Part shown: positions 4,275-62,049 of the stretch, one piece after another
Numbering within the stretch: the first letter of the stretch is position 1
Layout of the letters: every line of letters starts with the position of its first letter
Origin: Raillietiella orientalis
Taxonomy: Eukaryota
Length of the DNA: 64,000 bases
Assembly: GCA_036172245.1 (NCBI GenBank)
Contig: JAYWIR010000023.1
Location: 1,054,001-1,118,000, forward strand
Direction: 5' to 3'
Notes under the pieces: model-generated
The model's input: only the letters and a program-made list of their open reading frames with translations
What the model was told of the DNA's origin: nothing
The model's database searches: none
Position numbers and translations under genes: made by a program

Positions 4275-5591
4275 TCACAATTTTGTTTGGTATTCTAATT
4301 TGGAATACCTGAGAGCATTTTTGACTTTGTTCTGCCATTCAGCAGCATCTTTTTTTAGTAGAATTGTATTATTTTGTATTTCTGGATCAGCCAAGCCATA
4401 GTTAGGTGGATTTGCAAAAGGATCATATCCCAAAACAAGCAACATTGGTGCAATTTCAGCCATATCAGTAACAACATCCTCTGGAATTTGACCAACCCAC
4501 TTAGTGAGAGCTTCTAAATTTACTGGTTTGACAACTTGATCTGAAGACTTCTCCAGTCTGACAACATAAAATCCATTTAAGTACTCATAATTATCTACCT
4601 TACATAGATAAGGATATTCCCTTTGGCTTATTGATAAGTTGCTCATGATGCAACACAGCCTCATGCCACTTTATATCCAAAAATGCAAGGATACGACTCA
4701 TCCAAATACGTGGATGTAGAACAAGCTGTTCATAATGGACAGGCAAACAGCGCTTCGGACCCACTTCAATACACTGTGCATGCATTACTTGCATAGCTAA
4801 ATTCCATTTTGCAAGACTCTGGCGATAGCTGTGCAAGTCAAAGCCTGAAACAGTTATCTAGCCAACACAGTGCCAACAATAATCTGCTTTTTACTACTTT
4901 TCTGCTAATGATGGAATGGACAGTTGCTCTTCCATCACGAATCATGAAGATAAACTTTGAACTGGGAAAGAGCTTGCTCAAATAAACAGTAGACTTTAAA
5001 GTAAAAGGATCCTTATTGCACAGATATGGAGCTAGTTCCCCATGCTTGATTACTATTTCCAGGATGAAAGCAGCTACTGCATCATCAATGACCTATTTGT
5101 ATTAAAGCATTATTATGAAGTAAAATCAGAGAGTTCAAAAGTGAAATTAATATACTAAACATAAAGATAAATTGTACTTCAGCAGTTAGACCCGCTTCTT
5201 TTAATCGCAAGTTTTCATGTTCAGATTTTTTCCACTGAGCTCTCATCTGTAGAATTCTAGGAATCACTCGAGTTTCTTCACCACATCTAACATCAGGATG
5301 AGCATCCAACATTGCTCTAACAAGAGTGGTTCCTGAACGAGGCATACCACCAATAAAAATCAATGGAAGGTTTCTATCATACTTGGACAGCAATGTCTGG
5401 GAATAGCTTATTATGGAAAATTTTTTTAATAAGCTCAACAATACCTTTTCATATTCCGCAACACGGATTGGAGATCTGTAAAATGAACTGTACGTAACCA
5501 AGTAACAGACCAGCAGTGACACACCACACCATACTATGATGTTCCTCAATTGAACATTAGAAAAAAAGTACAAACCATACTTCAAGAACAT
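4275..5591 (-). CDS. TPST: Protein-tyrosine sulfotransferase (Golgi type II membrane enzyme), spliced
   Basis: Motifs [99 protein letters not shown], plus an N-terminal TM segment. GT-AG introns inferred at 5444-5397, 5177-5093, 4897-4858, 4603-4558, and possibly 5580-5545. Stop TGA at 4277-4275. Confidence 0.95.
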
Positions 5592-7188: not shown

Positions 7189-7730
7189 CTATTTGTTTAT
7201 GAAAATAAAAATACAATTACATTTTCCCGTGGTGAGCCCTTGGGTACACCACGTCACAACAGCTTGCTGGTTGCCGGTGCAAAGACCGGAGAGGTCCATC
7301 CAACGCGCGGGAGTAGGAATAAAGTAAACAAAAAGAAACAAAAAGTGAAACGTGGGGAGGGGAGAAATGTCTAGGGGCGGGGAAGGGATCACACTGCGCG
7401 CGGATCGGTCCTCTAGATCCTGTTCAGGATCCTGTTCAAGCAGTGTCCTGCTTGCGTCCAGGTGGGGCCAACTGGATACATTTCGCACGAAGATGCGAGT
7501 CCAATGGATGGCATCCCTGCCATTTTGTCCTCTTCTGTACGCGTTCCATGCCGCCACGATTCCACGAATGCAGCGCAGCACTGCTACAGACGCGGCCGGG
7601 GGTAGGCGGTACGCGAGAAGGGGCGCCTGAAAATGTCCATGGGGTCGCCTCCGCCAATGTTCAGGATCGTCGCAAGACAATTCCAAAGGGGACGGAGGGC
7701 AATGCAGTCTACGAGAAGGTGCGGGAAAGT
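7189..7730 (-). mobile_element. 5'-truncated 3' end of an RLE-type non-LTR retrotransposon
   Basis: GC-rich island in AT-rich DNA. Translation SVAVLRCIRGIVAAWNAYRR resembles the C-terminal helix of R2/NeSL-type ORFs. It is followed by a T-rich/structured 3' UTR ending ...cacgggaaaatgtaattg...ataaacaaa, similar to the 3'-end-like sequence at ~23,260-23,300. Confidence 0.45.
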
Positions 7731-10298
7731 CACAGTTACCTACTGACAAAACCCATAAGAGCAATTGATCACATTCAACTACCAATACACTTCAAACAGC
7801 AGAGTATTGAATTCCAATCAATTGGCAGCAGAGAAAATCAAGAACAATCAATTCCAAAGACTGATTACGCAATTTCCCCTAATTTATGATTATAAATGAT
7901 TTCTTTTTGATTTGTACATAATCAGATTTTTCTACTAACAGATAGTTCTCCTTGATTGAAAAATAGAGGAAAATGGGGAAAGTATTTTTTTAATAATAAA
8001 TAAATAGAATATTTTTTAATGATAATTGCGAGCATTTGTTGAAAAGTCCATTTGATATGACAAAGTTGCATATTCACAAATAGGCAGAAATCCGAGTTGA
8101 TGTTGCCTTTTTTCGTAACACTTTGAATTCTGTTTCCATAGATTAAAAAGGAAAAACATGAAATTAGAGGATCCTCAAATAGTCGGCAGCATCTCATTTC
8201 TGGTTTGGAAGAGAGGAATAAATGCTAATCAGTGAGGATAAGGCATGAAGAGACAAGCTGATAGCATGCAACCAATTTGCAACGAGAAATATTGGAAATA
8301 GGAATTAATGAAATCGTAAGTAATGGATTTTCTGAATTTTATTTCGGACTTCTCTAGAACTCTTTATGTCATCCAGAAAGTATTTCTAGAAATACAATAA
8401 GATAGATAGAACATTCAAACACATTAAACTTTTTAAAGAGTTGCAAAAATCATTTAATCTTTTCATATTTATGAAAACCTTCGTTCACATATATATTTAT
8501 GAAATTCCACAAATATATCACAAAACTTTTGAAATTTCTACACACTTCACACAAATCCTAAATCTAGAATAGGGGCACAAAGGGAATTTGAATTAAATTC
8601 TGTACTTGCCATATCTTACAAATATCATCTATCTCAATTGTAGAACAGATGGGATGTTATTATTCTTACAATTAACAACTCCATTTGTTCATATACTATC
8701 TGATTTGCTTAAATTTCCCATGTATCGCATCAGTTTAAATTTTGTTTGCTTTAGTGATATTAATAAGAGATTACATGAGTGACATGAATGACATGCAGCA
8801 TGCCTTTCGGGTTATCTAATTCGGGTTATTTAATATTCTATTTAAACTTGCTCCCTTTCATTCTTTTCGAATCGTGATTTCAGTGAGTAAGATTTCCGTT
8901 TCGTGGAGTCTTTGAATGATTCGTTTTAGAAATGAAACACACTGATTTGTGTATTTTTGTGGCTTTTATAATGACAGAGCTGCATATTAATTGCGTTCTC
9001 TATAATCTTGGACGGGAAGCTATTTTTAAGAACAGTTTTTAATTCAGGAATTTTTTTTCCTCGGATATATTCATGTTTCGAATCAGTTTTCCTGCTATTA
9101 ATAGCTTATAAACAATAACTGCAATCATACTTTACTGGAAAATATTATCTTTGTTGCCTATTTTAGATTTTCCATCATTTATCAAAGAAATTACAATGCA
9201 AAAATCATAATACAATACATGATGTACACAGAAATATCTAACATATAAAAATTTTCTAGTTCACACTCTTGAAGTCAAGATTATGTTTTAGTTTTTTATT
9301 ATTATCTGACTAGAGAATTGGATATGAAACTAGACCTCTATTGAGAATCATTGATTCGGGGATTTGCTTCTTAATTTGGAAGCATTTAGTTTTTTAAAAA
9401 CGTCACATTATTTCCTAAATACTACAAGGCTTTGTATCTGTAAAACTGCAAATTCTTTGTTCGAACATTTATCATAATCAATTTTCTAACGTGATTTCTG
9501 ATTCCGTTCATATTAATGATTTGTCATATGAGATTTAATACAAGTAAAGCGGTGATCTAACTTAAGAACTGATGAGACAACGGTGCTTAATCTTATATAT
9601 GAAAACTGCAAATTTTTCTGAGCAGTAATCAAACTTATGTACAATTTATCCACAGTCCTATTTTCGTAGCCTATTGTGCGCTAGAAGCAGTATTATGGCT
9701 GCAAATAATAATTAGAAATTCAATTTTATCTTTAAAATGAGTCTATTCATTCCATTCAAACTCATACTTGATTTGCTACAAGTTTCAAAGCATAATTCAC
9801 ATTTTGTATCAGTAATTGAATGTGCTTTAAAATTATTCCCATCTTTTTTTGTAGATGCGATTGTAAAATTTGGATTGCATTTCATCATCTGGCTCTAAAT
9901 TATTATAAATATATACATACTCTTCAAATTAGTATTTATAGACACTTTTGTAGTTTCAAAGCAATTACACTTAGAAGTTTCGTGGGTTTATTTGAGAATT
10001 GCTGCGTTTTGAAATGTGAAAAAATTTCGAGTTTGGTAGCTCCAAACCATCTAACGCATGTAATGTGCAAGTGGGGTCTTCATGTTTATATACAATTCTG
10101 AATGTAAACACCAAAATGAAGAAAGTGTGCTGTTTTGGACATAAGCTTAGTGTTCTGCTCACGTTTATCACAATAAATTGCACAATACGAAAATACCAGA
10201 TTACCTGTTCTTTAAAATAAATCTTTATGGTAACTGCCCGGATCCGATCAGTTGGTGAAATTATTGATGATAGCTGTTTGAAATGTCGAAAAGTCAAT

Positions 10299-13200
10299 AT
10301 GTCGAAAAGAAAATTCCCTTACGATAACGAAAGTGATTATTATTCTGTTCCTGGTGCACAGTCCGATAATCAAATAGCAGTTGGTGCCGCTGCTCAAAAG
10401 AAGCACACTCTAGATTCCGATGAAGAAGAAGAAATTGACAATAGTAAATATGATATTATGAAAAACTCAGATATCCCTGGTAAGTTATATCGGTTCAGAT
10501 GTTCAAGAAAATCCTTGTAAGCATTAATAGTCATACCCGTAGTGAATTTGTAAGTTTCCAACACAATAAAATGGGGGCTTTAATCTTTAGATTGTAAGTT
10601 TTATGTGAGTCTAATCATAAATTTGAGTGATCAATCAAGTACTCTAGCTAGGCTCTTGCATTTTAATCATCGTAGTCTGAGCAGTTTTCAACATTCTTGT
10701 TTTCTCTATGATGTCAAATGTGTTAGGTGAAGGCATCTCAGTTGTTTGGAGGAAAAGTTTACATAATATAGTTATATATATCCACATAAAATCAATATAT
10801 GGGATTGTACATAGTGAAGCCTCTATGTTCTGTAAAAAATTATAAAATCTGTTTGAACATAAACTTCAGAAATGCATGTAACAATTCATAAGTACCTCAG
10901 TAAGAACTGCCTGATATTCAGGCAATGTAGGCTTTGAAAATTTATACGAATCAGTTTAAAGCTGTAATTTTGTGATAAAATCTTTGAAATACATAACTGA
11001 ATACGTTTTTTGTTGAATATGAAAATTTATTGGAAGTCGCAACAAGTTTTAATAAAGTACAGTTTCTCAGGCACTGAATAATTTCTTTATATCATGGCTA
11101 TTTGCATTACTGATTTTTGATTTGCTTCTAGTATTTTTGAGTTCAATGAGTTAATCACAAGAGTGTTTAAAAATGAAGTCATTTCTCTTGTACATGTTTG
11201 ATTATTTTTGTTTTATTTGTAAAAATTATGGGTCACTAATTTATTAAATTGGTTACAAGAGAGTATGTTTATGATTGTCATCAAAATATTTGATCTTGCA
11301 TTTAAGTTACTTTCGAAATGGATAGAGAATAGGTTCGTTTATAAGCTAATATAATTGCTTATAAGGAATAATTTTGGAAATTAAGAATTCCCATCCAATC
11401 AAAAACTACTGGTTAAAACATAAAACTTAAATTCCCACTTTGGAGAATTGCATGTTCTTTGTTATTTTCTTTAACAATCTTGTTTGTCAGAGATGTTTAC
11501 TTGGCATACTGGTGATTGCTTATAGGTGGAAACTTTGTATATCAAAACTGTTGAAATATGACTTGAAGATATGTTTCTAACTGTGAAGCTGGGATTGATT
11601 TTCATGGTAACCAATGAGTATTATTGAACCTTTCACTCTAGGAAATGCCTTTTTTCAATACTTTTCTCTGTGCCTGTCTGATTTTCAGTTCAGACATTAA
11701 AGCCATACTCACTCATTCCATTTTAAATTGAAACTTTTTGTCATTGATTTCCACCTTCATCACAGTTTTTGCTGGCCTTTCGTTCTGCTCACAGTTCATA
11801 GAATGCTAAATACCCAGCTTTTTCAGGATTGCTTCATTTTTTTTGATGATTGTAACGATTTTTAAATGTTTTATCGAACATCTGGTTTCTGTTCTAGTTT
11901 TGTAGATTTGTTAACTTGTGTCTTTCTTAAGACAATATAAGTCTGGAAATTCTTTTCTGATAGTAGCAAACACATTGTTCAGCTATTACAAACAACAAAC
12001 ACACCTTCATCTGTTACTTTACTGTCATTATTAGAGACTTTATTGTTTTCTAATCACTTTTTGAAGTTCTTTTATTATTATTATTATTATCAATTCTTTC
12101 CTATTAATGTTTATTTGACTTCTGGGCAATTTCATGCTCTAATCTTTGTTTCCAGTCTGTTGCTACCAGTGATTTCAAACTTCAGAGTTTAGCATTTTTT
12201 TTACCCTTTTTGGGGCATTGGATTTAGTCAGTAGTAGTGTAAGTTTGTTCTTTTCATAGTTATTTAGCAAGATAATTTTCAATTTATGGCATTGGCATTT
12301 TAAATGTATTGGATTTCTAAAGAATGAACTTCGTATATTAAAAAGTATAGATAGGTATTAGAATAATGATTTATTTTAACAAACTCTTGGTACAAAATAC
12401 TGTGTTCATTTCACATTCTTCTGTTCATTATTTAATACAAAGTTCCATTCTCAATTAGATGGAGTCATGTGGATGTGTTTGGTGTTGCTTTAGCACACAT
12501 GTGGACATTTTGTAATTAAATTCAGCAAAAAAATATTTATATGTTTGTATCCACTTTTTAGGATCATTCTTTGCCTTTTTCTAATTTACAGTTTGCATAA
12601 AAATTTACTTGTGTCTTGCATTTGTGCACTGAATAACTCAGTATTCTCAGGAAGTTGTGTACATGTAGAACTAATAATGATTGTTCTTAGTTCTACATAC
12701 TGATTGATCATTCACATCAACTGGTTTGTTCTTCATATATCCATTTAAAATGGAAGCTTTTGCCGAAATTAATTTTCCATTAAAAAAAAAAACAAAAAGC
12801 TGGATTGAATTTTACAATTTAGAATTACAAGCTCAGCCCATTTCTTGAACAGGGGATAATTTTTTTAGAATTATGTTTCTAAGTTTACAACCTGGTGCTG
12901 TAGGATTTGACTGAGATTTAACTTTTATTTTTGTGCACATTAGGCATTTTTTATACTGCAATTTTATGATTGTATTGCCATGCACCTTGTAACCCTGACC
13001 TGACCTATCCCAGTTCTCTGGTAACTGAGTATTTGCACAGTCACTTCCTCAAAAAACTGCATAATTTTGAAATGTGTTTTGAATGAAAATCCCACAATTT
13101 GTATTAGGGCAAGAAGACAAAACTTTGGAATTTGATGGAGAAATACAAATAACTCCATTTAATATGAAAGAAGAATTGGAAGAAGGTCATTTTGATAGAG

Positions 13201-16200
13201 ATGGTTTTTATCATTGGAACAAGGAAGAAAACGAGATGCATGATAGCTGGTTAGAAAACATTGATTGGGTTAAGGTGAGTTTTCATGTTGTCTTCCCATG
13301 ATCAAGAAAATTCTGTATTGTAATTGGATTAATGGTTTGAATGCAGTCTTCATTAATATAGTATTTGTAATGTAGTCTCCCAACATCTTTTGTGAAGTAG
13401 TACAAGTATGTGTGTTGTTGCTTTGTGTTTCTGCCTACCAAAAATCTTTTGTTTCATTTATGATATAGTATTCTGTCTGCACTATTATACTGTGTGGTTT
13501 TTTATTCATTGTAATTGTTCTTCTAAATTACACCTGGAAAGAGAAAATATTCTGATATAAATTGAACAACTTAAGTGAATGTAGAAAAGATTGCTTCTCT
13601 TTTTAAAAGAAAAAACACATTAAGCTTTATTTCTCACAGACAAAATTCCGAAAATTACTCATGAAAAGTGAGAGAAAAATACAATTTAGGTTTCAAATTC
13701 TGGGTTTTTCTCATGGATGTTCCTTCTTTTCTTTTTTTTTAATTGATATACAAGAAAAAAACATTTTCAATGCATTTTGGAGTTGACTTTCTCACATTTT
13801 TTTTTTTTTTATGTAAGTGAACTGACATGGTATTTTCATGGTTATGATTTTGATTGCATTTAATTTGACATTTACTTCTGAATATACAAAGTATTTAAGG
13901 TGCGCACAAAATGGAATGGTATAGTCTGTTTATGGAAGAGAAAATGACATATCTTCTGCTTCCTATTATAATTTTTGAAAGGATAAGCTTTTTTCTCCTA
14001 ATTTTGAACGAGGATCTGTGGTTTTAACAGCATCCAGATGCCATGAATCAGAAAAGAAATATTAGATTCTTTGTGTAGCTTTCACCTAATATCTTTGACT
14101 ATCTCAGTTGATTTTTTTTTAACTAGCATTTTTCTATGCAATTAAGTTTGTAATTGTAGAAGTTTTTAAAGTGATACTGATGCTCTGCTTCTTGTAATAG
14201 AATCAACTATAAATTTCAAGCACCCTTCTTTTGTGGGCGTTTCAGCAAATGTTGCTGCAAATTGCATTCCAAATAAATTTCATTAAAATGCTGCTGATGT
14301 ATTTTCCGCTAGTTTTGCTGGATATATTAACAGCAAGTATTTCTATTTAATGTTTAACATTTAATGTTAAACACAATGAATGTGTTGTGCTGATTGTACC
14401 AAAAGAATATCATCTGATTCTCCATATTGTAGTATGGTTTATTAAGTAAAAAAATCACAAGCTTTGTTCCATCAGAAGTATTCTCCAGTCTTCAGAAGCT
14501 AATGAGTTTTTTGTTTGTAGAATGCCAGTATTGCAAAAGCAAATGCAAGTTTTATTCGTAGTAATTCTGTATCTTAAGAAAAGTATTTATGGAAAATCGT
14601 AGCATGCTTAATAAGTACAAGTTGTTATTCAAATGTATTTCCCAAAATTGGCTTTCTTAACCCATAAATTTTTCTTTTGCTAAGAAGCAAGTGATAATGA
14701 TTACTGAATGAATTTTATAAGAGTTCAGTTAAACATTTGCAAGAGCAACATTAAAAGCAAGAAAATCAAATGCAAAATGTCTTTGCACATATATCATTGT
14801 ATAGTATTTGTCACTTATTAATTTTTCATGCATTTAATCGTATTAATATACTACGAAAGTTTCCCTAGCATGAAATGTTTTGTTATTTATGCAGAATGTG
14901 CATGTTTGCAGACAGTCTACAGAAGAAAAAAAACTACGTTTCGGAAAACTACATTGCTTCTCAATTTAGTTAATTTTAGATTTATTAAGGATAATGGATT
15001 AGAGAATTTTTTCCAAAAAAAATGTCAGTGTGAGCTTTCATACCAATAATGAGATCAGTTTCAGTTCAATTCAGTCAGAATAGTTTAAGGTTTAATTTCT
15101 TTTTTATTTTGAAAGTTTGTTGTTATCTAATATATTCCACCAAAGTTCCAGTAGTATAAAACTTGCTGTCAATCAAATGATGTTTACCTTTCAATATTTA
15201 AAAGTATGATTATATTTCATAGAGTAAATGGGAATGTTTGAAGAATTACTTGGTCATCTAGAATGGCATTGTTGTATGCTTGTTATTACCAGTGTTCACA
15301 TTTTGTTTGAACATTGTGTTTGGTTAGAGGTTGCTCCATCCATAGATTACTAAGTGTAGCTAATTCTTCTCACTTTGGCTCCAACATTGATGGCTGGAAG
15401 GATTTGATGTTTTAATCTTTTTTCATCATTAGTGTTTGATTTCTCTTCATTCTTCCTATTTCAGTTTTCCTCACTGCATATATTTTTCAAAAATTATCTT
15501 TGTAATTTCAAATCATAAAAAAGTAGAATCTTGAGGTAAATTTTTGGAAAAAACCTATAGTGTCTTTTGAAACAAATCACAGGAAAAAAAGGGTGGTAAA
15601 ATATGAAAGGATTATTGTATCTCAGGTCCAAGCACAAAAATTACCAGCTGATACTTCTGAAGCCAATGTGGAAAGTGAAGATGCTCCAAATTTAAAAAAT
15701 TATCAATCTTCATTAGAACAAATGCTGGAATTGATGCGGCCGGGTGAAACGGTAACACAAGCATTGCGCAGATTAGGTGTGTAGGTATTTTAGTATGTTC
15801 ATGGTTTCACTGCTTATTTGATCAGGAGGTTCCAAACACTTATCTGCCTCTGAAAGATGGAAAAAAAAAAAGAAAGGAGAAGCTGTGAATGATGATGTGT
15901 GTAAAGATGATTTACTTAAACTTACTGGTCTAGCTGATCATATCTTAAGTGCTGTTGGTGATATGGATATTTATCAGCAAACATATGAAAGATTGCAACA
16001 GAAGGTGAATTGAGATAAGCCTTACAAGTTTTGAATTTGAATCATCTTTATGTTCCTTTGTTTATCATAAATTCTGTGTTTTCTAAGACAAAAGAATTGG
16101 ATAATTCTGTGTCAGAACCAACATCAACTTCTCATGTTTCACCTGATGATGCCTCCACTTGTCAGTCTTCAGATACAGCTAGTTTAAATACTATTCAAGA

Positions 16201-16455
16201 AGCAGTTGCAGGTATGTATTGTAGATATTTTCATATATGATTAATTGTAAACATTCAGAGAGTGTATTGTGGGAGTATCGCTTCCATGAGTTTGATGAAA
16301 GCAAAGTTTATGGACCACATTCTAGCAAAATAATGCTGCAGTTACTCCATGAAGGCCATTTTAACTCAGGAGCATGGGTACGACATTTTGGTGTTGATGA
16401 ACCATGGTGTGCAGTTAGCAGTGTTCAGTTTGAAGATGTCATTACTGTAAAATAA
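10299..16455 (+). CDS. CD2BP2: CD2 antigen cytoplasmic tail-binding protein 2 / U5 snRNP 52K (Lin1/Snu40 family), spliced
   Basis: Exons 10299-10479, 13108-13274, 15626-15776, 15826-16004, 16088-16211 and 16259-16455, all GT-AG and in frame. Motifs KHTLDSDEE, ITPFNMKEELEEGHFD..G.Y, DSWLENIDW, MRPGETVTQALRRLG, LTGLAD..L..G..DIYQQTYE, and a C-terminal GYF-like domain. Confidence 0.93.
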
Positions 16456-19460: not shown

Positions 19461-21199
19461 CTATCATCCCTTGGCTTCTATTGTAAATGCATTGATCCGT
19501 TTTACTTAGATTCAATAACTCTCATCCTCCTTCGTTCAGTTCGTTTATTTTCAATGACTTCCATGCAGGTTTAACATCCTTCGTTCCATCTCTGTCTAGA
19601 ATTATTGAAAGCTTCATTCCTATGTTTGAAGTTGTGCAGTGTTTTGGCTCATTTTGTGCTTCGTTTTGCTAACGATCCTTTTATCTCACGTTAGAACTTT
19701 GAGAGGTTTTGAAAACGTGGGAAAACTTTGAATTGCATTCCTATCAAACTTTCAAAAACTCATCCCTCATTTTACTTCGGGTGCAAGGAAATCGGAAGAT
19801 TTCCTATATTAATCCTGAAAGCTTCATTATTTTTAGTTTTTCTAAATTTAGACTCATTGAATAAACCCCGACGATTCCTTTGTGACTGTTTCTCGAAACC
19901 GACATCAGCTCCAAACTTTCAAGTGCCTAAAATCTAGATCCGGTAAGAAAATAATCTCTTTTCGTACAGGCCGTCCAGCATCATGAGGGCATTTTTCATT
20001 TCATTTTGCTACTGATCAACTGGAAAGATGCCTGGGATAGTTTACAGTTTCAATTTTATTCTCTGCGAGAAAATTCAAGAGGGTTTAGATGGCCAAATAC
20101 TTCGATCCACTACGAAAAGCACACAACCATGATGATCCGTGGCTGGAATAGCGGTATTTGTGGCAAAGGACGTCGACTACATCCTCCTTGGCTAGCGTTC
20201 TGTATGTAATGTATACTTGGAGTCTTCTTGGTAGCTTTGCATTTCTCTGACTATCTTCTTAATACATTGTGCACTTTCTGCTGATCCGAAAGCATGCCAA
20301 TTACGTTATTTAGAGGATATGAATCTTGACTTCGTCTTCCTATTGGTTTGTATGCACCATCATTTCGACACGATGCATAGGTTACATCTAACATAACTGG
20401 TTGCAAAATTCTTTTGTTTCTAAAGTTCCAGTTCTGTGATTTTTTGCATAACTCTGAATCACTTTCATCTCGCAAAACTTATGAGTCTTTTCTCTTTTGA
20501 TTCCTCTCTCTAATTTCCTAGATTTCGTATCACTCGATTTCTCTTTATCCATGCTTTGTTTTTAAATGGTGGTATGGTCCATTTGCCAGCATCTTTTGTT
20601 CTCCTTGAAAATTCACAGCACTTTTTTTTTTTTCATTAAGTACATCTCGACTTTGGTTGTCTTTAGCTGGATTTGTAGATGGAATAGAAGTAAGCAAAAA
20701 GCAATGTTTAGGTGGCAGATGAGAATCCAAATTTATCGCGCGTCATTCACTGAGGGCACAAAAATGTGACGTACGATCTGAGGATGAACGGATGAGTGTT
20801 ACTAAAAGTCCTGCACAGAGATTTATGTACATGTTCTTGCACATGTACATATATATTCCTGTAAACATACATGCATGCACATGTGCAGATGAATCAGTCC
20901 ATTCACATGAATTATTAGTTAGCCGCTTCTCCCTTCCAACTGATGAATTATGAATTGCAATTACAATTTGTTTTGTCGTGGTTTCCATCGTGACACTCTG
21001 CCCGTCTGAACGTGCTTCATTCAGTCTGAGGCCCCCTTTACATCCGCTGCTCACGCATTCATCAATAGAAGCGGATCCAAAGTTCAAAATGGGAACGTGA
21101 TTCGTTTCCAGAGGTGATCAGCTCCTGGATGACTTAGCACTCAATTCTATAGTACGGAACTACTGTTTTTTCAAAGAAAAAGCCAAGAATGATGAGAGT

Positions 21200-23130
21200 T
21201 GAACTCCGTTAATCATCCCAACAGAGCCAATCTGACTCCAGAGGAAGATGGATTTCTTCTAGCTCTGGTTTCTCACCAGTTAATGGAGCGGAGCGCGCGC
21301 TACGTAGAGTGGTTGTCTGGTCCTCGAGGCAACACGTCCTCCCTGCTGCTGTCCGCGGGGTTCCGGGAGGAGTACAGCTGTTTGGGACAACGGTGCCAGA
21401 GACCGACTTTGCAGCTTTCCCTGCGGCGCACTGCGCGAAAAGATGTGGAGTTTTCTGGAGAAGTTGATGTGCACCTCGGAAGAAACGACTGGTAGCGTAA
21501 GAGAGGCATAGACCACAGCAACCTAGATGACAGCCGACAACCTGAACATACCGAAAACCAGGAAGCAGGATGGAAGCAGCCCATGGAAGCAGATCAGATG
21601 AGACTCCTGAAACTTGGGGAGACAAATGTGTCAGGGCACGTCACGCTGGTTTTCCTCCGGAGGGAGGGAGACCGTCCTGATCATGGGACTTTTTGAGTGG
21701 GGGACGAAGACGGCTGAGAACAAGACCTCGAATAAGGATGACTCTTTCTCCCTTGTAGTTCTCTCAGAGATCCCTTGGATGCTTCCACCATTTCTCTGCT
21801 CTAGAGTGACGAGCCGCCATCTTGCTGTTACGCAAGGCTTCTCGTTCATGAGCAACGAGTTGGTCAGGCAGGACTCTCCGAAGAATGAGCGGCTCAAGGT
21901 CCACCGTGGAGCGCCGCTTCCACTGCCCCTCCTGAGATATGGGAGAGATAGCGCGTCACGAGGGAGCCGACCCTCTCGATGACGCCTTCTCTTGGTCTCG
22001 AGCAGAGGGAGACTGCTGACTTTCTCGAATCCAGTCCAAACCCATCCACCCTACGAGGGGCGATGGTGTCGAGGATGGTGGAGGTGCATTGCCGTCGCAC
22101 CGGGAACCCCTTGGACGGCAGTGAGCGCCGGAGCGGTACGGATTGCGATTCGAATTGGCTCCAGCTGGAGGAAGGTACGGAGAGACGCACCTCAGAGGTG
22201 AGGCCAGCTGGAGTCGTGGCCCAGTTTTAATCCTCGATCCTTCCCTAGGCAGCCCAATTCTAAGGGCACAGCCTAGTTCTCATGCTGTTTCAGCATCTAA
22301 TTCGAGTCAGTACTGAAAGCTATGCGGTGTGATCCGGTGATCTGTGGATGACCTTTCCCCGCACATCCTCTCCCTATGCTGTCCGTTCCCGTCCCAGGGG
22401 AGCGTCTTCCTCCCGAAGCTTTTCGGGAAGCCGGTATGTGGAAAAAAGCACAGGCCAGCAGGAAGAAGTCGACAGTCTTCTCCGTGGAGGTTTCATAGGA
22501 GGGCTGGAAGGATTGCAGATCGGCGCTTCCAAGTACTTTGGCGTGTGCTGTGCAAGTCTGCACTTCAGGAGCACTCAGAAGATAGAAAGGACACCAGTCT
22601 GCTCTTAGGCGGCCTCAATTGCCAGAGAGGGATGTAATATGAAGCATTCTCCTCTCCGCTTCTCCTTGATTCTTACTTTTTGCTTGCTCTTCCCCCTACA
22701 AGGCGGAAACCCGTACTGATATTCTCTTAAGTAAAGCCTCGTGTGATCCAGGAGGGGGGGGGAGATGGAGCCAAGGTTGCGTTCCCGAAGACCGGGAGCG
22801 GCGGTGCGGTTGCGGAAACAACATTGGCGTCCTTCCCCTCCCCCTCCTCACTCGGGTGGTGCATTCCGAGGCTCATGATCCTTTGCGAGGACCTAGAGTC
22901 CCTACTTCCTCATCAGTTTTCCACCATCGCAGCATCAACGAAACTTCTGGGTGTCTGGACTGCAGAAGCCCAGCTGGCTGATGAAGCCATTCCTGGCGCA
23001 GGCACTCAAGGACTGCTGTGTTGCAAGGGTCTGTCGGACTCTCCGAGAACTCTTGGCAATTCCCTTGTGAGTGGGTAACTTCGCACCCTCCCCCGCATGT
23101 GACCTGCACTGGATTCTCCAGTGCGTCGTC
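21200..23130 (+). mobile_element. Degenerate R4/Dong-like RLE non-LTR retrotransposon (RT to zinc knuckle)
   Basis: Frameshifted motifs in the expected order: VHRGAPLPLPLL (QGxPLSPLL), VDSLLRGGFIGGLEGL (ERLYxP..GGRGL), LCCKG/SENSWQFPC (CCHC remnant), ACDLHWILQC (IHWxLC, typical of the R4 clade). Confidence 0.5.
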
Positions 23131-26945: not shown

Positions 26946-27062
26946 CTGATTCCTGCTCTCTGCGGAGGGCCTGCTCCCAATTCCGGCCGGTCAACAGGAG
27001 CATCCGGTTTTCAAGGCGCACGCGCGCCATTTCAGTGCCGCATCTGAAAGCCGTAGGCCAAA

Positions 27063-27356
27063 CATTTGTGGAATCTCATCCATCCTAAGAGCTATTAACT
27101 TTACTACCACCATCATCAACATACACCCCTCAAATATCTCTCTCCCCCAAATACCCCTCCTCCCGTGATCAATCCTCGTTACCAAAGTTCTATTAATCCC
27201 CATCCTTCTCCATACTACTCCTCAGTATCTTACACTCAAAAGGACCAAGAGCAGGCTGAACCTTATATCCTCCCCTTACTAGAACCCCCTTTAGACCGTC
27301 CATAAGAATCGATCTAGCCTTTTTCTCTCATTCCTGCTGGGGGGTCTGGAGACCCA
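27063..27356 (+). pseudogene. cox1: NUMT: fragment of mitochondrial cytochrome c oxidase subunit I
   Basis: From 27,070, the invertebrate mitochondrial code gives [43 protein letters not shown], with TGA at 27,166 at the conserved Trp position. After frameshifts come DR... and PAGGSGDP (cf. FFDPxGGGDP). The strand is C-rich and G-poor, unlike its flanks. Confidence 0.85.
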
Positions 27357-30726: not shown

Positions 30727-30741
30727 GATGCTTGTCGCAGC

Positions 30742-31815
30742 CATCATCTCGCCGTGAGGATTTTCATACTCGCTGCATCATCTTGCACGGTCAAAATGGC
30801 GCACCCAGTTGTCAGGTGAGTTCGAGATTCATTCACGAACCGCCAATGCAAGAGCGGATGATCGCTTGCAGAGCCCCTCGATTCCTCGCTGCGTAACCAT
30901 GGTACAGTTTCAGTTTGGGGTTCTTCGTCGGCAGCAACACAGCCAGCAACAGCCGATCTCCAAACGCCAGGGGACTCGTTGCTGACGCCTGTCTTCACAC
31001 GGCAGTGAGAGAGAGAATGAGATTTCCGGTGGCTCAGCTGAGCACCAGCTGGCATCGCAACGAATTCCATCGATCCACCGATTCGAGCGGCGTCGGGCAA
31101 CGTGCCTGTCGCAGAGGGCCGCGTATTCCGCCCCGGGAACGCGCGGCCGGACGCGGTCCGTTCAAGAAATGCGCCGCAATGCGTGCGTCGGTCTCTTCCT
31201 TCTTCGCGCGGCTTCATAGCGACGCCATCTTTCTCGAGTACCGGGCGCGGGCTCGAAGCCAGGTACTCGAGAAAGATGTTCGGTCGCCTGGATTCGCACC
31301 GAGGGTCGCGAATCCAGGCGACCGAAGAAGCCACTCCTTTCCTTAAGCAACAACGAGCGGAGCGCTCGCTCGCAGTCGGGAAGCCCTCGGTGCGAGACCA
31401 CAGCAATCCGCCGTTTCCAGCTCCACCTGCACGGCTTTGCGACCCGTGGCCAGAGGAGGAAGAGAGGCCTCGCCACGCGCGCTGCCTTTCGCGCGGCGTT
31501 CGACTGCCGCCGGTCAGCTTGCCCGACGCGCCGAATGGTTTTCGTTCGCGGTGCGCGAATGGGGGGGGAGGGGAAATGGTTTGCGCGCAGGAAACCGCAG
31601 GGAAGGAGACAACGAAGGGGAGAGGTCCACGACGACGGCTTCTTCCACGTGGCCGTCCGCGGTCAGCTTGAAACTCGCTCATGGCGTGCGGAGGTGGCAG
31701 GCGCGCGGAAGCGACTCGGGATGAATTTTCGCTGTGAAGCCGGAGGCGCTAGAGGTGCTGGATTCACGGGAGCGAGTGTGTCCTAACAGAGGGGTCAGCA
31801 CCGATCAAAGCCTCG
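30742..31815 (-). repeat. 1,074-bp inverted duplicate, copy 1 (U2-upstream segment)
   Basis: Reverse complement of 59,319-60,392. All overlapping ORF translations in the track are identical between the copies. A near-match extends to 30,727. Confidence 0.97.
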
Positions 31816-33049
31816 CGGGCCTCGCAAATTGAAACTAACGGACTGCCCGAGTCTGGTCGAAACTGATTGTACTGAACGCAACCGAGGCTCCTGTGTCGTG
31901 TCGAGGGTAGAAATTTCATCTGTCCTTACGACTCTGAAGGAGTACCGCTTTCCGAAAGAGGAGATCAGCAGCAGAGAAGGTGTCGACCCTCAGATGCTGC
32001 TCGAGAAAGAGTCGCCATTCAGTTCTTCATGCCCGGAAGCTGACCATTTCCGGGTAGAGCCAGCCGCTGGGGCTCGGCTCAGTTTCCAAGACGCGGATGG
32101 CGAATGTTCAGAAGGTGAGCGGGGGGAGGGGGCGAGTTTTCCACCACGCCCTGCACGGTGAGGTGCGCCACATTCTGCAAGCCACCACCACTGCATTTGT
32201 TATTGAATCGGGAAGATTTTTTTCAACGAAAAGCAGACATGTGAGCGGCTAAGAAACGAGGCCCACAGACGCAGTGAGGATTTCTTCACCTTCACCCTGA
32301 GCACGTGAACCAGCTGCTCGACGAGTGAGGGTGGTCCATTCTGACGAGTCAGCGCATCTCGCGTGCGTCATGCGCAGAAGAGGAAGGTGACATGGATTCG
32401 GAGAAGGCGCAATTCCTTCACTAGCCGTAAGCCGCTTGCGCAACTTTCGGAGTATGCGGAATGCCAACCGGCTTTGGTTGCTGAGCGCGCATCTTTGTCG
32501 AGGTGGAACGCTTTTTTCCAATTCGGCGACCCTCGACGTCCGTGAGAGCGCTCTCGCCTTTGCCGCTGTACTCATTCTCTCCGGATCTCATCGCCCAGGG
32601 TAGGAACCCCCACGGCCATCAGACAAATGGCGCTCAAGGAATCGTAAGGGCGTTTATTGAGGATCAACAGACTTGCAAAAATCAGCAGCAGGACCCGACA
32701 TCCCACCAAAGCCACGTTCTCCTGGAAACGTGCCGAGATGACGGCATGCAGGCCGGCGAGGCGCGCCTCGGCAACGGAGGGGAGGGAAACAAACGAAAAG
32801 AAAGCAAAACGAGGATAAATGAATGGATACAAATAGGTGTTCTGGGGGGGGGAGAGGGAGTTCGGCAAGGGATTGCAGTCTTTTGCGAGGCCCTTTGCAT
32901 CCTCTGGAGGATTCCGGAAAGGTTCATTTGAATATCTCATTGTGATCCTCAAGAAGCGAATCACAAAGCGGATGTCCTCCCCTATCTTTCTGGCTTCCTT
33001 CGGCGGCGCTCCTGGATGCCGCAATCCCGCGATGGCAGCAGACAGCTGC

Positions 33050-39665: not shown

Positions 39666-41901
39666 GCGAGACGGAGATCGGATTCCCCGTCGGGGGGCTC
39701 CCTTTCCTCGCAGCTTCCTCGCGGACGGGAGGGCGGCGCCCCCTTTACATGCCGACCGGGAGATCGGAAAGTGTCGCTGTAGACGCGCCCATCGGTTGAA
39801 TCTCCCCAAAACCCTTCGGTGGAGGTATGTTGGGATGCTCGGAGGCGCGAGGAATGAAGGCCATGTGACAGGCAGCCTCCGGCGTTCGGAGTATGCCTCC
39901 GGAAGGCGACCGCGATGGAGGGGCCGCGCAGTTCCAGCGTCCTCGCGCGGAAGCTCGCTGCCTCCTGCGCACGAGCAGGCGGGAGGTACTCCGCGCGAGG
40001 GGGCGCTCCCGAGGGGCACGCGACTCGCGAGGCGGGTTTCGCCCCGCTTTGCCTCTGTCGGGCTGCGCTGCGGGGCAGCGGAGACCCTCGTCCGCCCTCT
40101 CCTCGTGCGGCAGCTTCCTTGCCCTCTCCTCTGCCTGAGGTCTGGTGGCAGTCGCGTTTCCTACTCTTCCTCCTGCGCCGCTTCGTCCCTTTCACGCAAG
40201 AAGAGGTTGTCGGACGTAGGCGGACGTATCAAGATAAACGGAGAGGAAGCTGCGTCTCTGAAGGAGGGAAGGAGGAGAACAGAAGCCTCCGTTTCGACAC
40301 TGTAGCTCAAGGGTGCCTCGTCGTCGTCTCAAAGGAAGTTGCGTAACTCCCGTTCCCACCCACCAGAAAGAATTTTCCGCATGATGGATGGAAAAATTCA
40401 AAATGGCGGCAGCGTCCAGAAACCGCGACTCCCTGGTGGCATTCGCTTTCTCTGCCGACGGACCCGACGGCGGAGTTCTCGGGGGCGACCGTCGCAAGGA
40501 GAGGAGGAGGGAGGGGGACTAAGGGTAGCGTCTTTCCTCTCCTGGTCCAGCGCTCGGGGTTCCTCCCTGGGAGCGGCGAAAGGCGGGCAGCCAACCAGCG
40601 AACGGGAGGGCAACCGCTGGCTGCTCGGCGGCGCAGCCGAGCCCTTCACAGCGACTGTCGCCCCTCTTCCTAGGAGTCTAGCCGGCCACATCCCCCAGCA
40701 ACGATCTCTCCTGCCCCTCTATTTCAAACAGAGGAGTTCTCTGAGGAGAGTTGAGGGACCCAACCAGGTCATGACTCTCCCCCAAGAGGTCCGCTCCCCT
40801 GGGAGAGTGAATCCGCTCTCAAGGACCTTCGATTTCGAGAGGGAGGAGTCCCAAATCGAATGCCGAGTCAGGTCCCTTCTTCCCGCCCCTGTTCTCCTCT
40901 GCAGCCTCCCTGGAGTCCTGCCGCAGCCTGAACTCAGCGCGGAGGCGGTCGGAGGTCCAGGGCTGCTACTGGGTGAGGTGACTGGGTCCGGAGACTACCG
41001 CAGCATCGTGTCTCCCTCTCTCCCCCGATGGCGGTCTTCAAGTGCGGCAGGCCCCACCAGCATATAAAATGGCGGGATTCACCCCCTACGAGGTGCAGCA
41101 ACTCTTCGCTTGCGCCAGCCAGCTCGGTCCGCCGCAGCGATGCATCCCAGATCTGCGGACTCCTTCCTCTTCTCCCAGCTCTTTGTGAGTGGAATCCCTT
41201 CCTCGAGGAGGAAGGCCCATTCTCCCCACCAGGACTCAGTGGAGGAGGGGAGAAGGTTCTGAGCTGGGATGGGGTGGGGAAGAGGAGGAGGCCAGGGATT
41301 GGGGAAGGCGGGAAGCGGAGTTGACGCGCACAGCTCGGAGTGGTCTGGCAAGGGTCATGCCATCGCTCCGTGGGTCCATGGCAGTCCCATGGGGAGGAGA
41401 GAGAAGAATGTTAAAGAGACGCACTCGAGGAAGGTGGCAGAACCCAGAGGGCATGGGCAGAAAGCACCCTTTTCTTTGGATCTTTGGAGGACTTTTCGGA
41501 CCCAGGTGTTCCATCCTGCCTTCCTCTGAAGAACGACGCGGTTTCCGGAAGGAATGTAGAGGATTCTAGGGAAGCATAAGGAACGGGTGCGAGAAGAGGG
41601 TCACTGACCTCGAGATCGTGAAGGTGACTAGGGGAGATGGGAGGGTGGTGTCTGCAAAAGAGAGGAAAAGGCAGCTCAGTGACCTGAGGAACCTCCGTGG
41701 TTCAATGGGTGTGACAGTGAGTTTGGGAGTCGACCTCACGATGGCAGCAGCACCTAAGTCTTTTTTTTTGTCCTTGCCATGCTCCGTCCTCCGCGACATC
41801 CCCTCTCTCCGAGTTTCTACGGGGGTTTCTTCGCAATCAGGAGGACGGAGAGGAAAAAGAGGCCAAGAAGAACAAGTGCATCACGAATCGGGGTCAAGGA
41901 T

Positions 41902-42447
41902 ATGTATAAACTAGATAAATTAATATTTTTTGCACTAAAGTAAAATAAATACACGAAAGTCATCGCATTATTCTCATCAATTTTTTTAATTTTATTTAGT
42001 GTAATATATTGTAACTATTCACTAAGAAGCAATTTTCTCTCTCCTTATCGCGATTCAAGCGTAGGTTTAAAAAGCGTACTGGAAAACAGCATAATAAAAA
42101 AATACCATTATTTACTAATAGAAAAACATCACATTAAATACAAAAATTTTGATTACATAAACCAATTAATAAAACTGCGTGCTGAATTATTGCAATCAGT
42201 GAGCGAAAAAAGAATCTTAGCTTGATACTGTATGATCAAAATGGCAGAATAATATTCAGTAACTTCAATACTCAAGATCATGGTTATGAACAGTTACTTA
42301 CAAACGATGAAATCGATAAACTACGAAGTAATCAAGAAATATTTTACACTACAGGGAATATATTAACTTCTATCATTCCTATATTCCATGAAAATAGCGC
42401 TAAACCGTCGTTTTTTTTTAAAGATTCTTCAAAACTATGACAATTTC
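41902..42447 (+). pseudogene. pleC: Wolbachia-like sensor histidine kinase N-terminal fragment (nuclear transfer, NUWT)
   Basis: Sharp AT-rich island in GC-rich DNA. It reads MYKLDKLIFFALK*NKYTKVIALFSSIFLILFSVIYCNYSLRSNFLSPYRDSSVGLKSVLENSIIKKYHYLLIEKHHIKYKNFDYINQLIKLRAELLQSVSE/NLSLILYDQNGRIIFSNF...IPIFHENSAKPSFF/LKILQNYDN. There is a TM segment and a periplasmic sensor, and no introns. I recall it resembling the Wolbachia PleC N-terminus; this has not been checked by search. Confidence 0.7.
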
Positions 42448-42699
42448 TGTGACAGAAACTCGAGAAAGAAAAAGAGAAACATTCGGGCACTTCTTCCAAA
42501 CGCATGCTGATCTGTAAATGACACGGTTGTTAGCGAGGGTCAAGTGACCCCAGAAGATGGCGGCAGGCTCATGACAGTAGCAGAGGATGAGAACCAAATA
42601 GCTCCCGTTTGCAGATTGGATCAGATATATTGGGATAGAAGATCAAGATGAAGATGAACAGCTTCTCTAGCTACAGGCGCAGGCAATCCTTCGTGGTCT

Positions 42700-59220: not shown

Positions 59221-59318
59221 AAAGGAGACCGTTATTAATTCTTTTACTTTGCTTGCATTGGATAGCCCATAGCGGAGGCGGGCAATTCACGGCCCTCGTT
59301 GTCCTTTTGTTAGCCCCT

Positions 59319-60392
59319 CGAGGCTTTGATCGGTGCTGACCCCTCTGTTAGGACACACTCGCTCCCGTGAATCCAGCACCTCTAGCGCCTCCGGCTTCAC
59401 AGCGAAAATTCATCCCGAGTCGCTTCCGCGCGCCTGCCACCTCCGCACGCCATGAGCGAGTTTCAAGCTGACCGCGGACGGCCACGTGGAAGAAGCCGTC
59501 GTCGTGGACCTCTCCCCTTCGTTGTCTCCTTCCCTGCGGTTTCCTGCGCGCAAACCATTTCCCCTCCCCCCCCATTCGCGCACCGCGAACGAAAACCATT
59601 CGGCGCGTCGGGCAAGCTGACCGGCGGCAGTCGAACGCCGCGCGAAAGGCAGCGCGCGTGGCGAGGCCTCTCTTCCTCCTCTGGCCACGGGTCGCAAAGC
59701 CGTGCAGGTGGAGCTGGAAACGGCGGATTGCTGTGGTCTCGCACCGAGGGCTTCCCGACTGCGAGCGAGCGCTCCGCTCGTTGTTGCTTAAGGAAAGGAG
59801 TGGCTTCTTCGGTCGCCTGGATTCGCGACCCTCGGTGCGAATCCAGGCGACCGAACATCTTTCTCGAGTACCTGGCTTCGAGCCCGCGCCCGGTACTCGA
59901 GAAAGATGGCGTCGCTATGAAGCCGCGCGAAGAAGGAAGAGACCGACGCACGCATTGCGGCGCATTTCTTGAACGGACCGCGTCCGGCCGCGCGTTCCCG
60001 GGGCGGAATACGCGGCCCTCTGCGACAGGCACGTTGCCCGACGCCGCTCGAATCGGTGGATCGATGGAATTCGTTGCGATGCCAGCTGGTGCTCAGCTGA
60101 GCCACCGGAAATCTCATTCTCTCTCTCACTGCCGTGTGAAGACAGGCGTCAGCAACGAGTCCCCTGGCGTTTGGAGATCGGCTGTTGCTGGCTGTGTTGC
60201 TGCCGACGAAGAACCCCAAACTGAAACTGTACCATGGTTACGCAGCGAGGAATCGAGGGGCTCTGCAAGCGATCATCCGCTCTTGCATTGGCGGTTCGTG
60301 AATGAATCTCGAACTCACCTGACAACTGGGTGCGCCATTTTGACCGTGCAAGATGATGCAGCGAGTATGAAAATCCTCACGGCGAGATGATG
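59319..60392 (+). repeat. 1,074-bp inverted duplicate, copy 2; lies immediately upstream of U2 and probably includes the snRNA promoter
   Basis: Reverse complement of 30,742-31,815. It ends 11 nt before the U2-like +1. Confidence 0.97.
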
Positions 60393-60403
60393 CTGTGACA
60401 AGC

Positions 60404-60440
60404 ATCCTTATCGGCCTTTTGGCTAAGATCAAAGTGTAGT
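60404..60440 (+). ncRNA. U2: U2 snRNA 5' fragment (interrupted gene / pseudogene)
   Basis: ATCCTTATCGGCCTTTTGGCTAAGATCAAAGTGTAGT: the last 30 nt match the invertebrate U2 5' end (stem I plus branch-point recognition GTGTAGT). The expected continuation ATCTGTTCTTATCAG is absent. Confidence 0.9.
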
Positions 60441-60930: not shown

Positions 60931-62049
60931 CGGAGGGTTCGGAACCGAGGATTTCGTCTTCGTACCATCATCAGTAGCAGCGAGACTCTTCGTGGCGTGT
61001 TATCCTTTGCGGCACCTCGCGGTACTCCGAGGCATCGCCATCTCGTTGACAGCTCGTGCGTTCGAAGACGGGAACCTTGAAACGCGAGGTAATTGCTGCC
61101 TCTGATGAGGAAAAAGAAAGGGGGAGGGAAAGAAAACGAGAAGAGAAAAAACTTTCAAGGCTGCGTGCTCATCAGACGCAACAAGCGGATACTCGCAGCT
61201 TACTCCAGTGAATGGACGTCGCCCACCCCCACCGTCGAGATGAACGAACCGCGTTCTCGAGAAAACCGTGATCCTTGGGATCGCGGTGCTTTCCGCCGCT
61301 CTTCGTTTTCTCAGCGTCCGCCCAACCGCATTTCTTCACTTGGAGGATCTGATAAAAAGGAAGGGAACTTTCCGAAGAGAGTGGGAAGGAGGTTGAGTGC
61401 AGGCTGCACCCCTTTTTTTTTTTTTTCCCCTCCTCGCCTCCCTCCTTCCTTTCCAAGGGGACTTCTCCCTTTCCTTTTTCCGCATCCGAGGGGACGAGCC
61501 GTAAAATTCGGGCGGATGCCGACCGGGGCCGAACGCCGGTTCCACGCGAATTGCGGCTTCCGGAGGGATGTCGGCTCCTCTGCCTGCCGCCTCGCGTCGC
61601 CGTGGCCACCACACCGCGAGAGGGAAATCTCTTTATCGAGCGATCTCACCTCGACAATCCGTTTCTCTTGAGGCGGAGGACCACAAAAAATACAAGAAAA
61701 GAAAAGAAAAAAAAAAAATCAAAAAAAATCAAAAAAAGAAAAAAAAGAAGCGAGGAAGGACGGAGATCAGGCCACGAGATACAACCACATCTCACGCACT
61801 TTCTAACGAAAACTCGCACTTAATTTCAAAGAATTTGCATTGTTTACCGGCAGCCAGAAGTGTTTAAGGCCGTTTGCTTGAGGAGCCACGGAACGCCGGC
61901 CACGCGAGGGGAGATAAAAAGCCGGGAAGGCTCTCGGGCCGAGATTCACTGTTTCTGCCTCATTTTTCGGAATTGTAGGTCAATGCTATGTGTTCCGTAG
62001 GCTAATTTCACAGTCGGCTCACTTATGCTGAATTATGAAGTAGTTAAAT

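Follow-up and report, generated by a model that had tools for sequence, protein, structure and literature searches.

A truncated Wolbachia pleC fragment within non-Wolbachia DNA, probably a nuclear transfer from a lineage without a sequenced genome

Nuclear Wolbachia transfers (NUWTs) are common. Many of those described closely resemble a resident or otherwise known strain, and both NUWTs and nuclear copies of mitochondrial DNA (NUMTs) are known to arise by the capture of DNA at chromosomal breaks through end joining. Examples of NUWTs include those of Drosophila ananassae (PMC4299567, PMC4558871) and Brugia malayi (PMC3849323), those of the Wolbachia-free woodwasp Sirex noctilio (PMC8962096), and the filarial "ghosts of symbionts past" (PMC12693587). 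The bacterial gene concerned here, pleC, is treated by Christensen and Serbus (PMC4426382), who describe Wolbachia PleC, the sensor histidine kinase of the PleC/PleD two-component pair, as a protein of 475 aa with two transmembrane (TM) helices and with DHp and CA domains; the same source gives pleC as a pseudogene in wOo.

Here, we analyze an insert of Wolbachia origin within a 64-kb stretch of DNA, referred to below as the window. The insert is very probably a NUWT, consisting of a non-functional 551-bp piece of pleC that would derive from a living Wolbachia of an unsequenced lineage and whose insertion would be young relative to the divergence of that donor lineage.

Identity, extent and lesions of the pleC fragment

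To identify the insert, we used its first reading frame in a word-seeded search of 5.8 billion proteins. Among 349 candidates, 37 proteins had an E-value of 0.01 or less, and all of these that bear an organism name are Wolbachia sensor histidine kinases. The top matches are 83–87% identical to the insert, the lowest E-value is 7.8e-46, and two of the top five carry the JGI label "cell cycle sensor histidine kinase PleC". At the DNA level, 55 of 60 Wolbachia species genomes match the insert, with a best identity of 87% over 550 nt (E 1.9e-191), while the remaining five gave no match. A preliminary description of this DNA had likened the locus to the N-terminus of Wolbachia PleC and had predicted histidine kinases of Wolbachia or other Anaplasmataceae as the top matches of a blastx-type search. 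Both expectations were borne out, the organism-named top matches being without exception Wolbachia sensor histidine kinases and the 475-aa protein being named PleC in PMC4426382.

When the second frame of the insert was run exhaustively with phmmer against 1.84 billion representatives, only 6 matches were returned, and the N-terminal region of PleC therefore seems restricted to Wolbachia. The phmmer match P0042 was rejected as a false positive, as it is a repetitive protein of 4022 aa with 0 aligned stretches. Three short public ORFs of 72–87 aa (P0041, P0043, and P0045), 68–70% identical to the PleC N-terminal region by phmmer, look degenerate and may be NUWT relics or pseudogenes of other organisms. 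Among the Wolbachia genomes themselves, pleC is apparently broken in Wolbachia sp. C61_2 (L022), where in-frame stops occur soon after TM1, and in L047 (G013), where the frame stops at 348 aa and not at 475.

Alignment with Wolbachia genes places the insert at nt -6 to about +545 of the pleC sensor histidine kinase gene, so that its 551 bp correspond to the 5' third of pleC (Table 1). It contains the ribosome-binding site (RBS), the start codon, TM1, and the inter-TM (periplasmic) region, and it ends before TM2. When translated with an X at the stop codon, the first frame gives a stretch of 107 residues; the second frame carries on, and the third follows after the T run. The preliminary description had reported an AT-rich island opening with an ATG and encoding a TM segment. 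The island is indeed evident, with 27% GC compared to 54–60% in the adjacent blocks, and the TM segment is present as the hydrophobic stretch V20–C37. Of the limits first assigned to the island, 41902 and 42447, the right one agrees with the zone in which pleC similarity fades, but the left one has to be moved, as homology begins 6 nt 5' of the ATG. In blastn, the insert aligns over 41896–42445/6 with 26 Wolbachia pleC loci, and the right-hand ends of the individual alignments fall at 42434–42450. A scan for bacterial promoters and terminators around the insert gave counts near the shuffled expectation.

Table 1. Coordinates of the insert, its parts and lesions, and other features of the window
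Feature	Position	Strand	Basis or remarks
Tyrosylprotein sulfotransferase (TPST) gene, four coding exons	4299..5546	-	Very short introns; gaps of ~20-80 nt between aligned exon blocks
Neighboring gene with GYF-domain exon at 16225-16452	10221..16452	+	
cox1-like mitochondrial fragment (NUMT)	27061..27319	+	CoxA homology; TGA at conserved Trp
Wolbachia-derived insert	41896..42447	+	blastn, DNA alignment, protein matches
Ribosome-binding site AAGGA, 5' of ATG	41896..41900	+	Alignment with Wolbachia genes
Original pleC start codon ATG	41902..41904	+	Alignment with Wolbachia gene starts
Premature TAA, codon 14	41941..41943	+	Alignment; AAA, CAA or GAA in Wolbachia
TM helix 1 coding remnant, V20-C37	41959..42012	+	Hydrophobic run in translation
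A6 run, 1-nt deletion relative to Wolbachia genes, frameshift -1	42206..42211	+	Alignment; frame change from P0001 to P0002
T9 run, 1-nt insertion (T8 in six Wolbachia rows displayed), frameshift +1	42411..42419	+	Alignment
Right junction zone, pleC similarity fading, ~codon 182, before TM2 coding region	42447..42451	+	Alignment
U2 snRNA 5' fragment (stem-loop I region)	60403..60440	+	Rfam, below gathering score; 22.8 bits, E 0.047

Alignment with Wolbachia genes also confirmed the premature TAA and the two single-base homopolymer slips that had been noticed from the sequence, the first slip being a loss in the A run and the second a gain in the T run. The reading frame is thus interrupted by a stop at codon 14 and by two frameshifts. 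Being located in homopolymers, both frameshifts might have arisen as sequencing errors; neither the TAA nor the truncation depends on them. Pfam found neither HisKA (PF00512) nor HATPase_c (PF02518) in the frames of the insert, whereas the Wolbachia homologs carry both. All three frames gave only sub-threshold noise against Pfam, and the N-terminal region of PleC has no Pfam model. TM2 is likewise missing from the insert, as similarity stops before the region that encodes this helix in Wolbachia genes, and no pleC similarity was found downstream of the insert, either by blastn against the pleC loci or by a whole-window DNA search against a Wolbachia genome. Judged from its sequence, the insert cannot be a working kinase, because the DHp and ATPase domains are missing, and it is probably without function.

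A remnant of this kind might have been co-opted as a host gene or exon that encodes a small membrane peptide or a regulatory RNA. The start codon, the RBS, and the TM1 segment are all kept, and two open frames of 93 and 84 codons persist, but the original frame closes at its 14th codon and the 93-codon frame offers no later in-frame ATG. Moreover, no near-identical protein copy of the insert was found among the 5.8 billion proteins, a search at "near" length giving 1 match, at 72%. We therefore regard co-option as extremely unlikely, and the insert as a dead piece of pleC.

Selection signature and donor lineage

To characterize the divergence of the insert, we calculated dN/dS by the Nei–Gojobori method (NG86) over 180 codons, leaving out those with gaps or stops. 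The insert shows a dN/dS of 0.07–0.11 against eight Wolbachia, compared to 0.08–0.20 for Wolbachia pairs among themselves. Its dS from the nearest genome is 0.60, and its differences from that genome are distributed over the three codon positions as 17:11:44, with 44 of 72 (61%) at third positions. Substitutions unique to the insert number 13 in 545 nt, divided 3:5:5 by codon position. Despite the GC-rich surroundings, the GC content of the insert (27.0%) lies within the range of its homologs (25–29%). The low dN/dS and the unchanged GC content together argue that the divergence is bacterial and that decay after the transfer has been small, and nearly all of the 13% divergence appears to have built up under purifying selection in a living bacterium. 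From the unique first- and second-position changes, we estimate that the neutral phase since transfer has been short, at most roughly 2%. Because almost no divergence looks neutral, the insertion is probably young relative to the divergence of the donor lineage. The transfer had earlier been called relatively recent, and in this relative sense the dN/dS, the GC content, and the slight neutral decay uphold that view.

The same measurements bear on a contrary reading, in which the 13% divergence is neutral decay after a very old transfer from an ordinary strain, for example one of supergroup A. A long terminal branch (0.12) and three disabling lesions speak for great age. However, both the dN/dS and the excess of differences at third positions are as found between living Wolbachia, whereas in DNA with 73% A+T, neutral decay of 13% should have introduced numerous stops and affected the codon positions evenly. 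The GC content has also stayed at that of Wolbachia homologs within flanks of 54–60% GC, and the insert is excluded from the supergroup A clade (97/98). An ancient insertion is thus highly improbable, and we retain the reading of an insertion that is young relative to the divergence of its donor.

We then placed the insert in a 37-row ML tree based on ~550 nt. The insert falls inside crown Wolbachia (support 99/99) and within no supported clade, at the end of a branch of 0.12. In the best tree it is sister to a clade of 12 genomes (42/56). This clade, supported at 97/98 without the insert, holds wPch (L024) from Psylliodes chrysocephala, a Wolbachia reported in PMC10487741 to cluster with supergroup A. 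The insert does not lie within the wPch-containing (supergroup A) clade and is at best its sister. In AU tests of groups that were named after the tree had been seen, grouping with B (p 0.39), with D (p 0.087), or with the termite-type MAG L008 (p 0.19) was not rejected, while grouping with the F-like clade was marginally rejected (p 0.035). Supergroups in which pleC is lost or broken, such as that of wOo (supergroup C; PMC4426382), lie outside this comparison. The tree places the donor outside every sampled clade, those of supergroups A, B, and D and the F-like one included, and weakly suggests a position as sister to A.

None of the 60 Wolbachia species-level genomes is more than 87% identical to the insert. 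JGI metagenome records contributed two relatives, the better of which belongs to supergroup A at 85%, and nothing closer. The synonymous distance between the insert and supergroup A (0.60) compares with 0.64 between A and the F-like clade and 0.73 between A and D. The donor would accordingly be placed by these distances as a living Wolbachia lineage that is absent from the sequenced genomes searched. More far-reaching is the reading that, apart from the insert, no trace is known of a Wolbachia lineage that has supergroup rank and lacks a sequenced genome. The insert would then be a young fossil, and its host a poorly sampled arthropod, probably not an insect, that perhaps no longer carries Wolbachia or was never recorded as a carrier. 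We put this forward tentatively, as a possibility that is on the whole doubtful.

Flanking DNA, host context and integration

We compared the whole window by blastn with 26 Wolbachia pleC loci that included as much as 3 kb of neighboring DNA per side. The sole match in the 64 kb lies at 41896–42450. No credible further Wolbachia DNA was found in the window by a DNA search against five complete or draft genomes of different clades. A candidate second NUWT at 61692–61749 was rejected, since its match (E~1e-4) is a poly-A tract. The insert is cut at both ends, and non-Wolbachia DNA extends for more than 20 kb on each side of it.

The window comprises two parts of different composition. The first 21 kb have 28–43% GC in 1-kb windows and are CpG-depleted (o/e 0.56), while the block from ~21.2 kb to the end of the window is GC-rich (47–63%), non-repetitive, and has a CpG o/e of 0.8–1.1. 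The AT-rich genic DNA (30% GC) gives way abruptly, within 21000–21400, to GC-rich DNA of more than 43 kb, and this junction could be an assembly join. An isolated island of 63% GC lies at 7221–7770 in the AT-rich part, ~1.7 kb upstream of the coding start of TPST on the minus strand. It may represent a CpG island of the promoter type or else a short stretch of GC-rich-type DNA, and it shares only weak matches of 42–95 nt with the GC-rich block. With Pfam, none of the 140 ORFs between 20.7 and 64 kb that reach 118 aa gave a match, and no family turned up in the 136 ORFs of this size class with a start at or beyond 21.2 kb; the lone match among all 142 ORFs scanned is a TPST exon at 5088–5591. 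Shorter ORFs, of 62–117 aa, number 316 in 21.2–64 kb, and the 100 of them that were scanned, between 33 and 48 kb, likewise yielded no family. No homolog was thus detectable in these ORFs for the flanks, relative to which the preliminary description had called the island far less decayed. Long ORFs of 442, 334, and 301 aa in the GC-rich part were rejected as genes, being Arg/Ser/Pro-rich junk translations. Over the whole window, neither Rfam at its gathering threshold nor Tandem Repeats Finder returned a match.

Intron-bearing animal genes lie on the same contig, 20–37 kb from the insert. Exon by exon, the TPST gene shares ~58–73% identity with the named protein that scores best. Of the 35 organism-named relatives within the best 120 of 984 TPST matches, 33 are from arthropods, the others being one tunicate and one bivalve; none of these 35 is from a nematode or a vertebrate. 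This identifies the host as an invertebrate, most probably an arthropod for which the searched database has no close named relative. The GC-rich block in turn contains a cox1-like fragment, which consists of two pieces in swapped order, with CoxA residues 161–229 ahead of 118–156. It shares 40–51% amino acid identity with Wolbachia CoxA and is much more decayed than the pleC insert. Its AGA codons sit at positions that we take to be conserved glycines in COX1, and its strand is C-rich and G-poor (C 35%, G 9%). From a cox1 base skew, presumably that of this fragment, the preliminary description had argued against a filarial host, and the lack of nematodes among the 35 organism-named TPST relatives (best 120 of 984 matches) adds to that argument.

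A 1.1-kb inverted repeat (30727–31828 and 59306–60406; 99.5% identical) brackets 27.5 kb of the window, including the pleC insert. The U2 snRNA fragment directly adjoins the outer end of its right arm. We rejected the possibility that a giant TIR transposon carries the insert, as the repeat shows neither a target-site duplication nor a recognizable transposase; a segmental inverted duplication is a conceivable explanation.

Based on a single assembly, we infer that the insert resides in nuclear DNA of the germline. The endosymbiont-to-host transfer proposed in the preliminary description gains support, within that one assembly, from the non-Wolbachia flanks, from the cox1 and U2 fragments, and from the spliced genes on the contig. 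Alternatively, reads of a live Wolbachia, whether symbiont or contaminant, could have been misjoined into a host contig. Such an artefact would be compatible with integration being read from one assembly, and the abrupt composition switch at ~21.2 kb might itself be a join. Against it, the piece measures only 551 bp amid non-Wolbachia DNA that extends for more than 20 kb in both directions, its premature stop is missing from the Wolbachia copies displayed, it is cut before TM2, and for a chimera, two false joins would have to have occurred independently. We consider misassembly very unlikely and favor integration into a host chromosome.

Established knowledge of how NUMTs and NUWTs form suggests a mechanism for this integration. 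Wolbachia may have lysed in germline cells and released free DNA, and a chromosomal piece of ~551 bp could then have been captured by end joining at a double-strand break in germline nuclear DNA. After its capture, the insert would have drifted without function.

Significance and comparison with known systems

A small dead NUWT is an ordinary kind of feature. The donor is mildly notable, standing at a supergroup-level distance from all sequenced Wolbachia. A dead piece of 551 bp has no expected effect on the host, and its value is that of a record, namely that the host lineage was germline-infected by a Wolbachia differing by at least 13% in DNA from all sequenced strains. Should the host not yet be recognized as carrying Wolbachia, the recorded host range and diversity of the symbiont would be extended. 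The insert also flags the assembly for a systematic screen for NUWTs and symbionts, and annotators should not filter the pleC locus as contamination.

The insert resembles the NUWTs of arthropods and nematodes in being pseudogenized Wolbachia DNA, probably within host chromosomal sequence, that can serve as a record of present or past infection. It differs from them in being a single 551-bp piece and the sole one in 64 kb, in having a donor far from sequenced strains (at most 87% nucleotide identity), and in that its putative integration is read from one assembly. With Wolbachia PleC as described in PMC4426382, it shares homology over the first ~182 codons (83–87% amino acid identity) and the same order of RBS and then ATG. 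In contrast to that protein, it is a gene relic that lacks TM2, DHp (HisKA), and CA (HATPase_c) and carries one stop and two frameshifts. Like NUMTs, it is a fragment of an organelle or endosymbiont genome, probably captured in nuclear DNA, non-functional and decaying neutrally, and the NUMT of the window lies in the same GC-rich block. Unlike NUMTs, it has its source in a facultative or obligate bacterial symbiont and not in a mitochondrion. It is also far better preserved than the NUMT of the window, with 87% nucleotide identity to living relatives compared to 40–51% amino acid identity to alphaproteobacterial CoxA, a distant homolog that overstates the decay of the NUMT.
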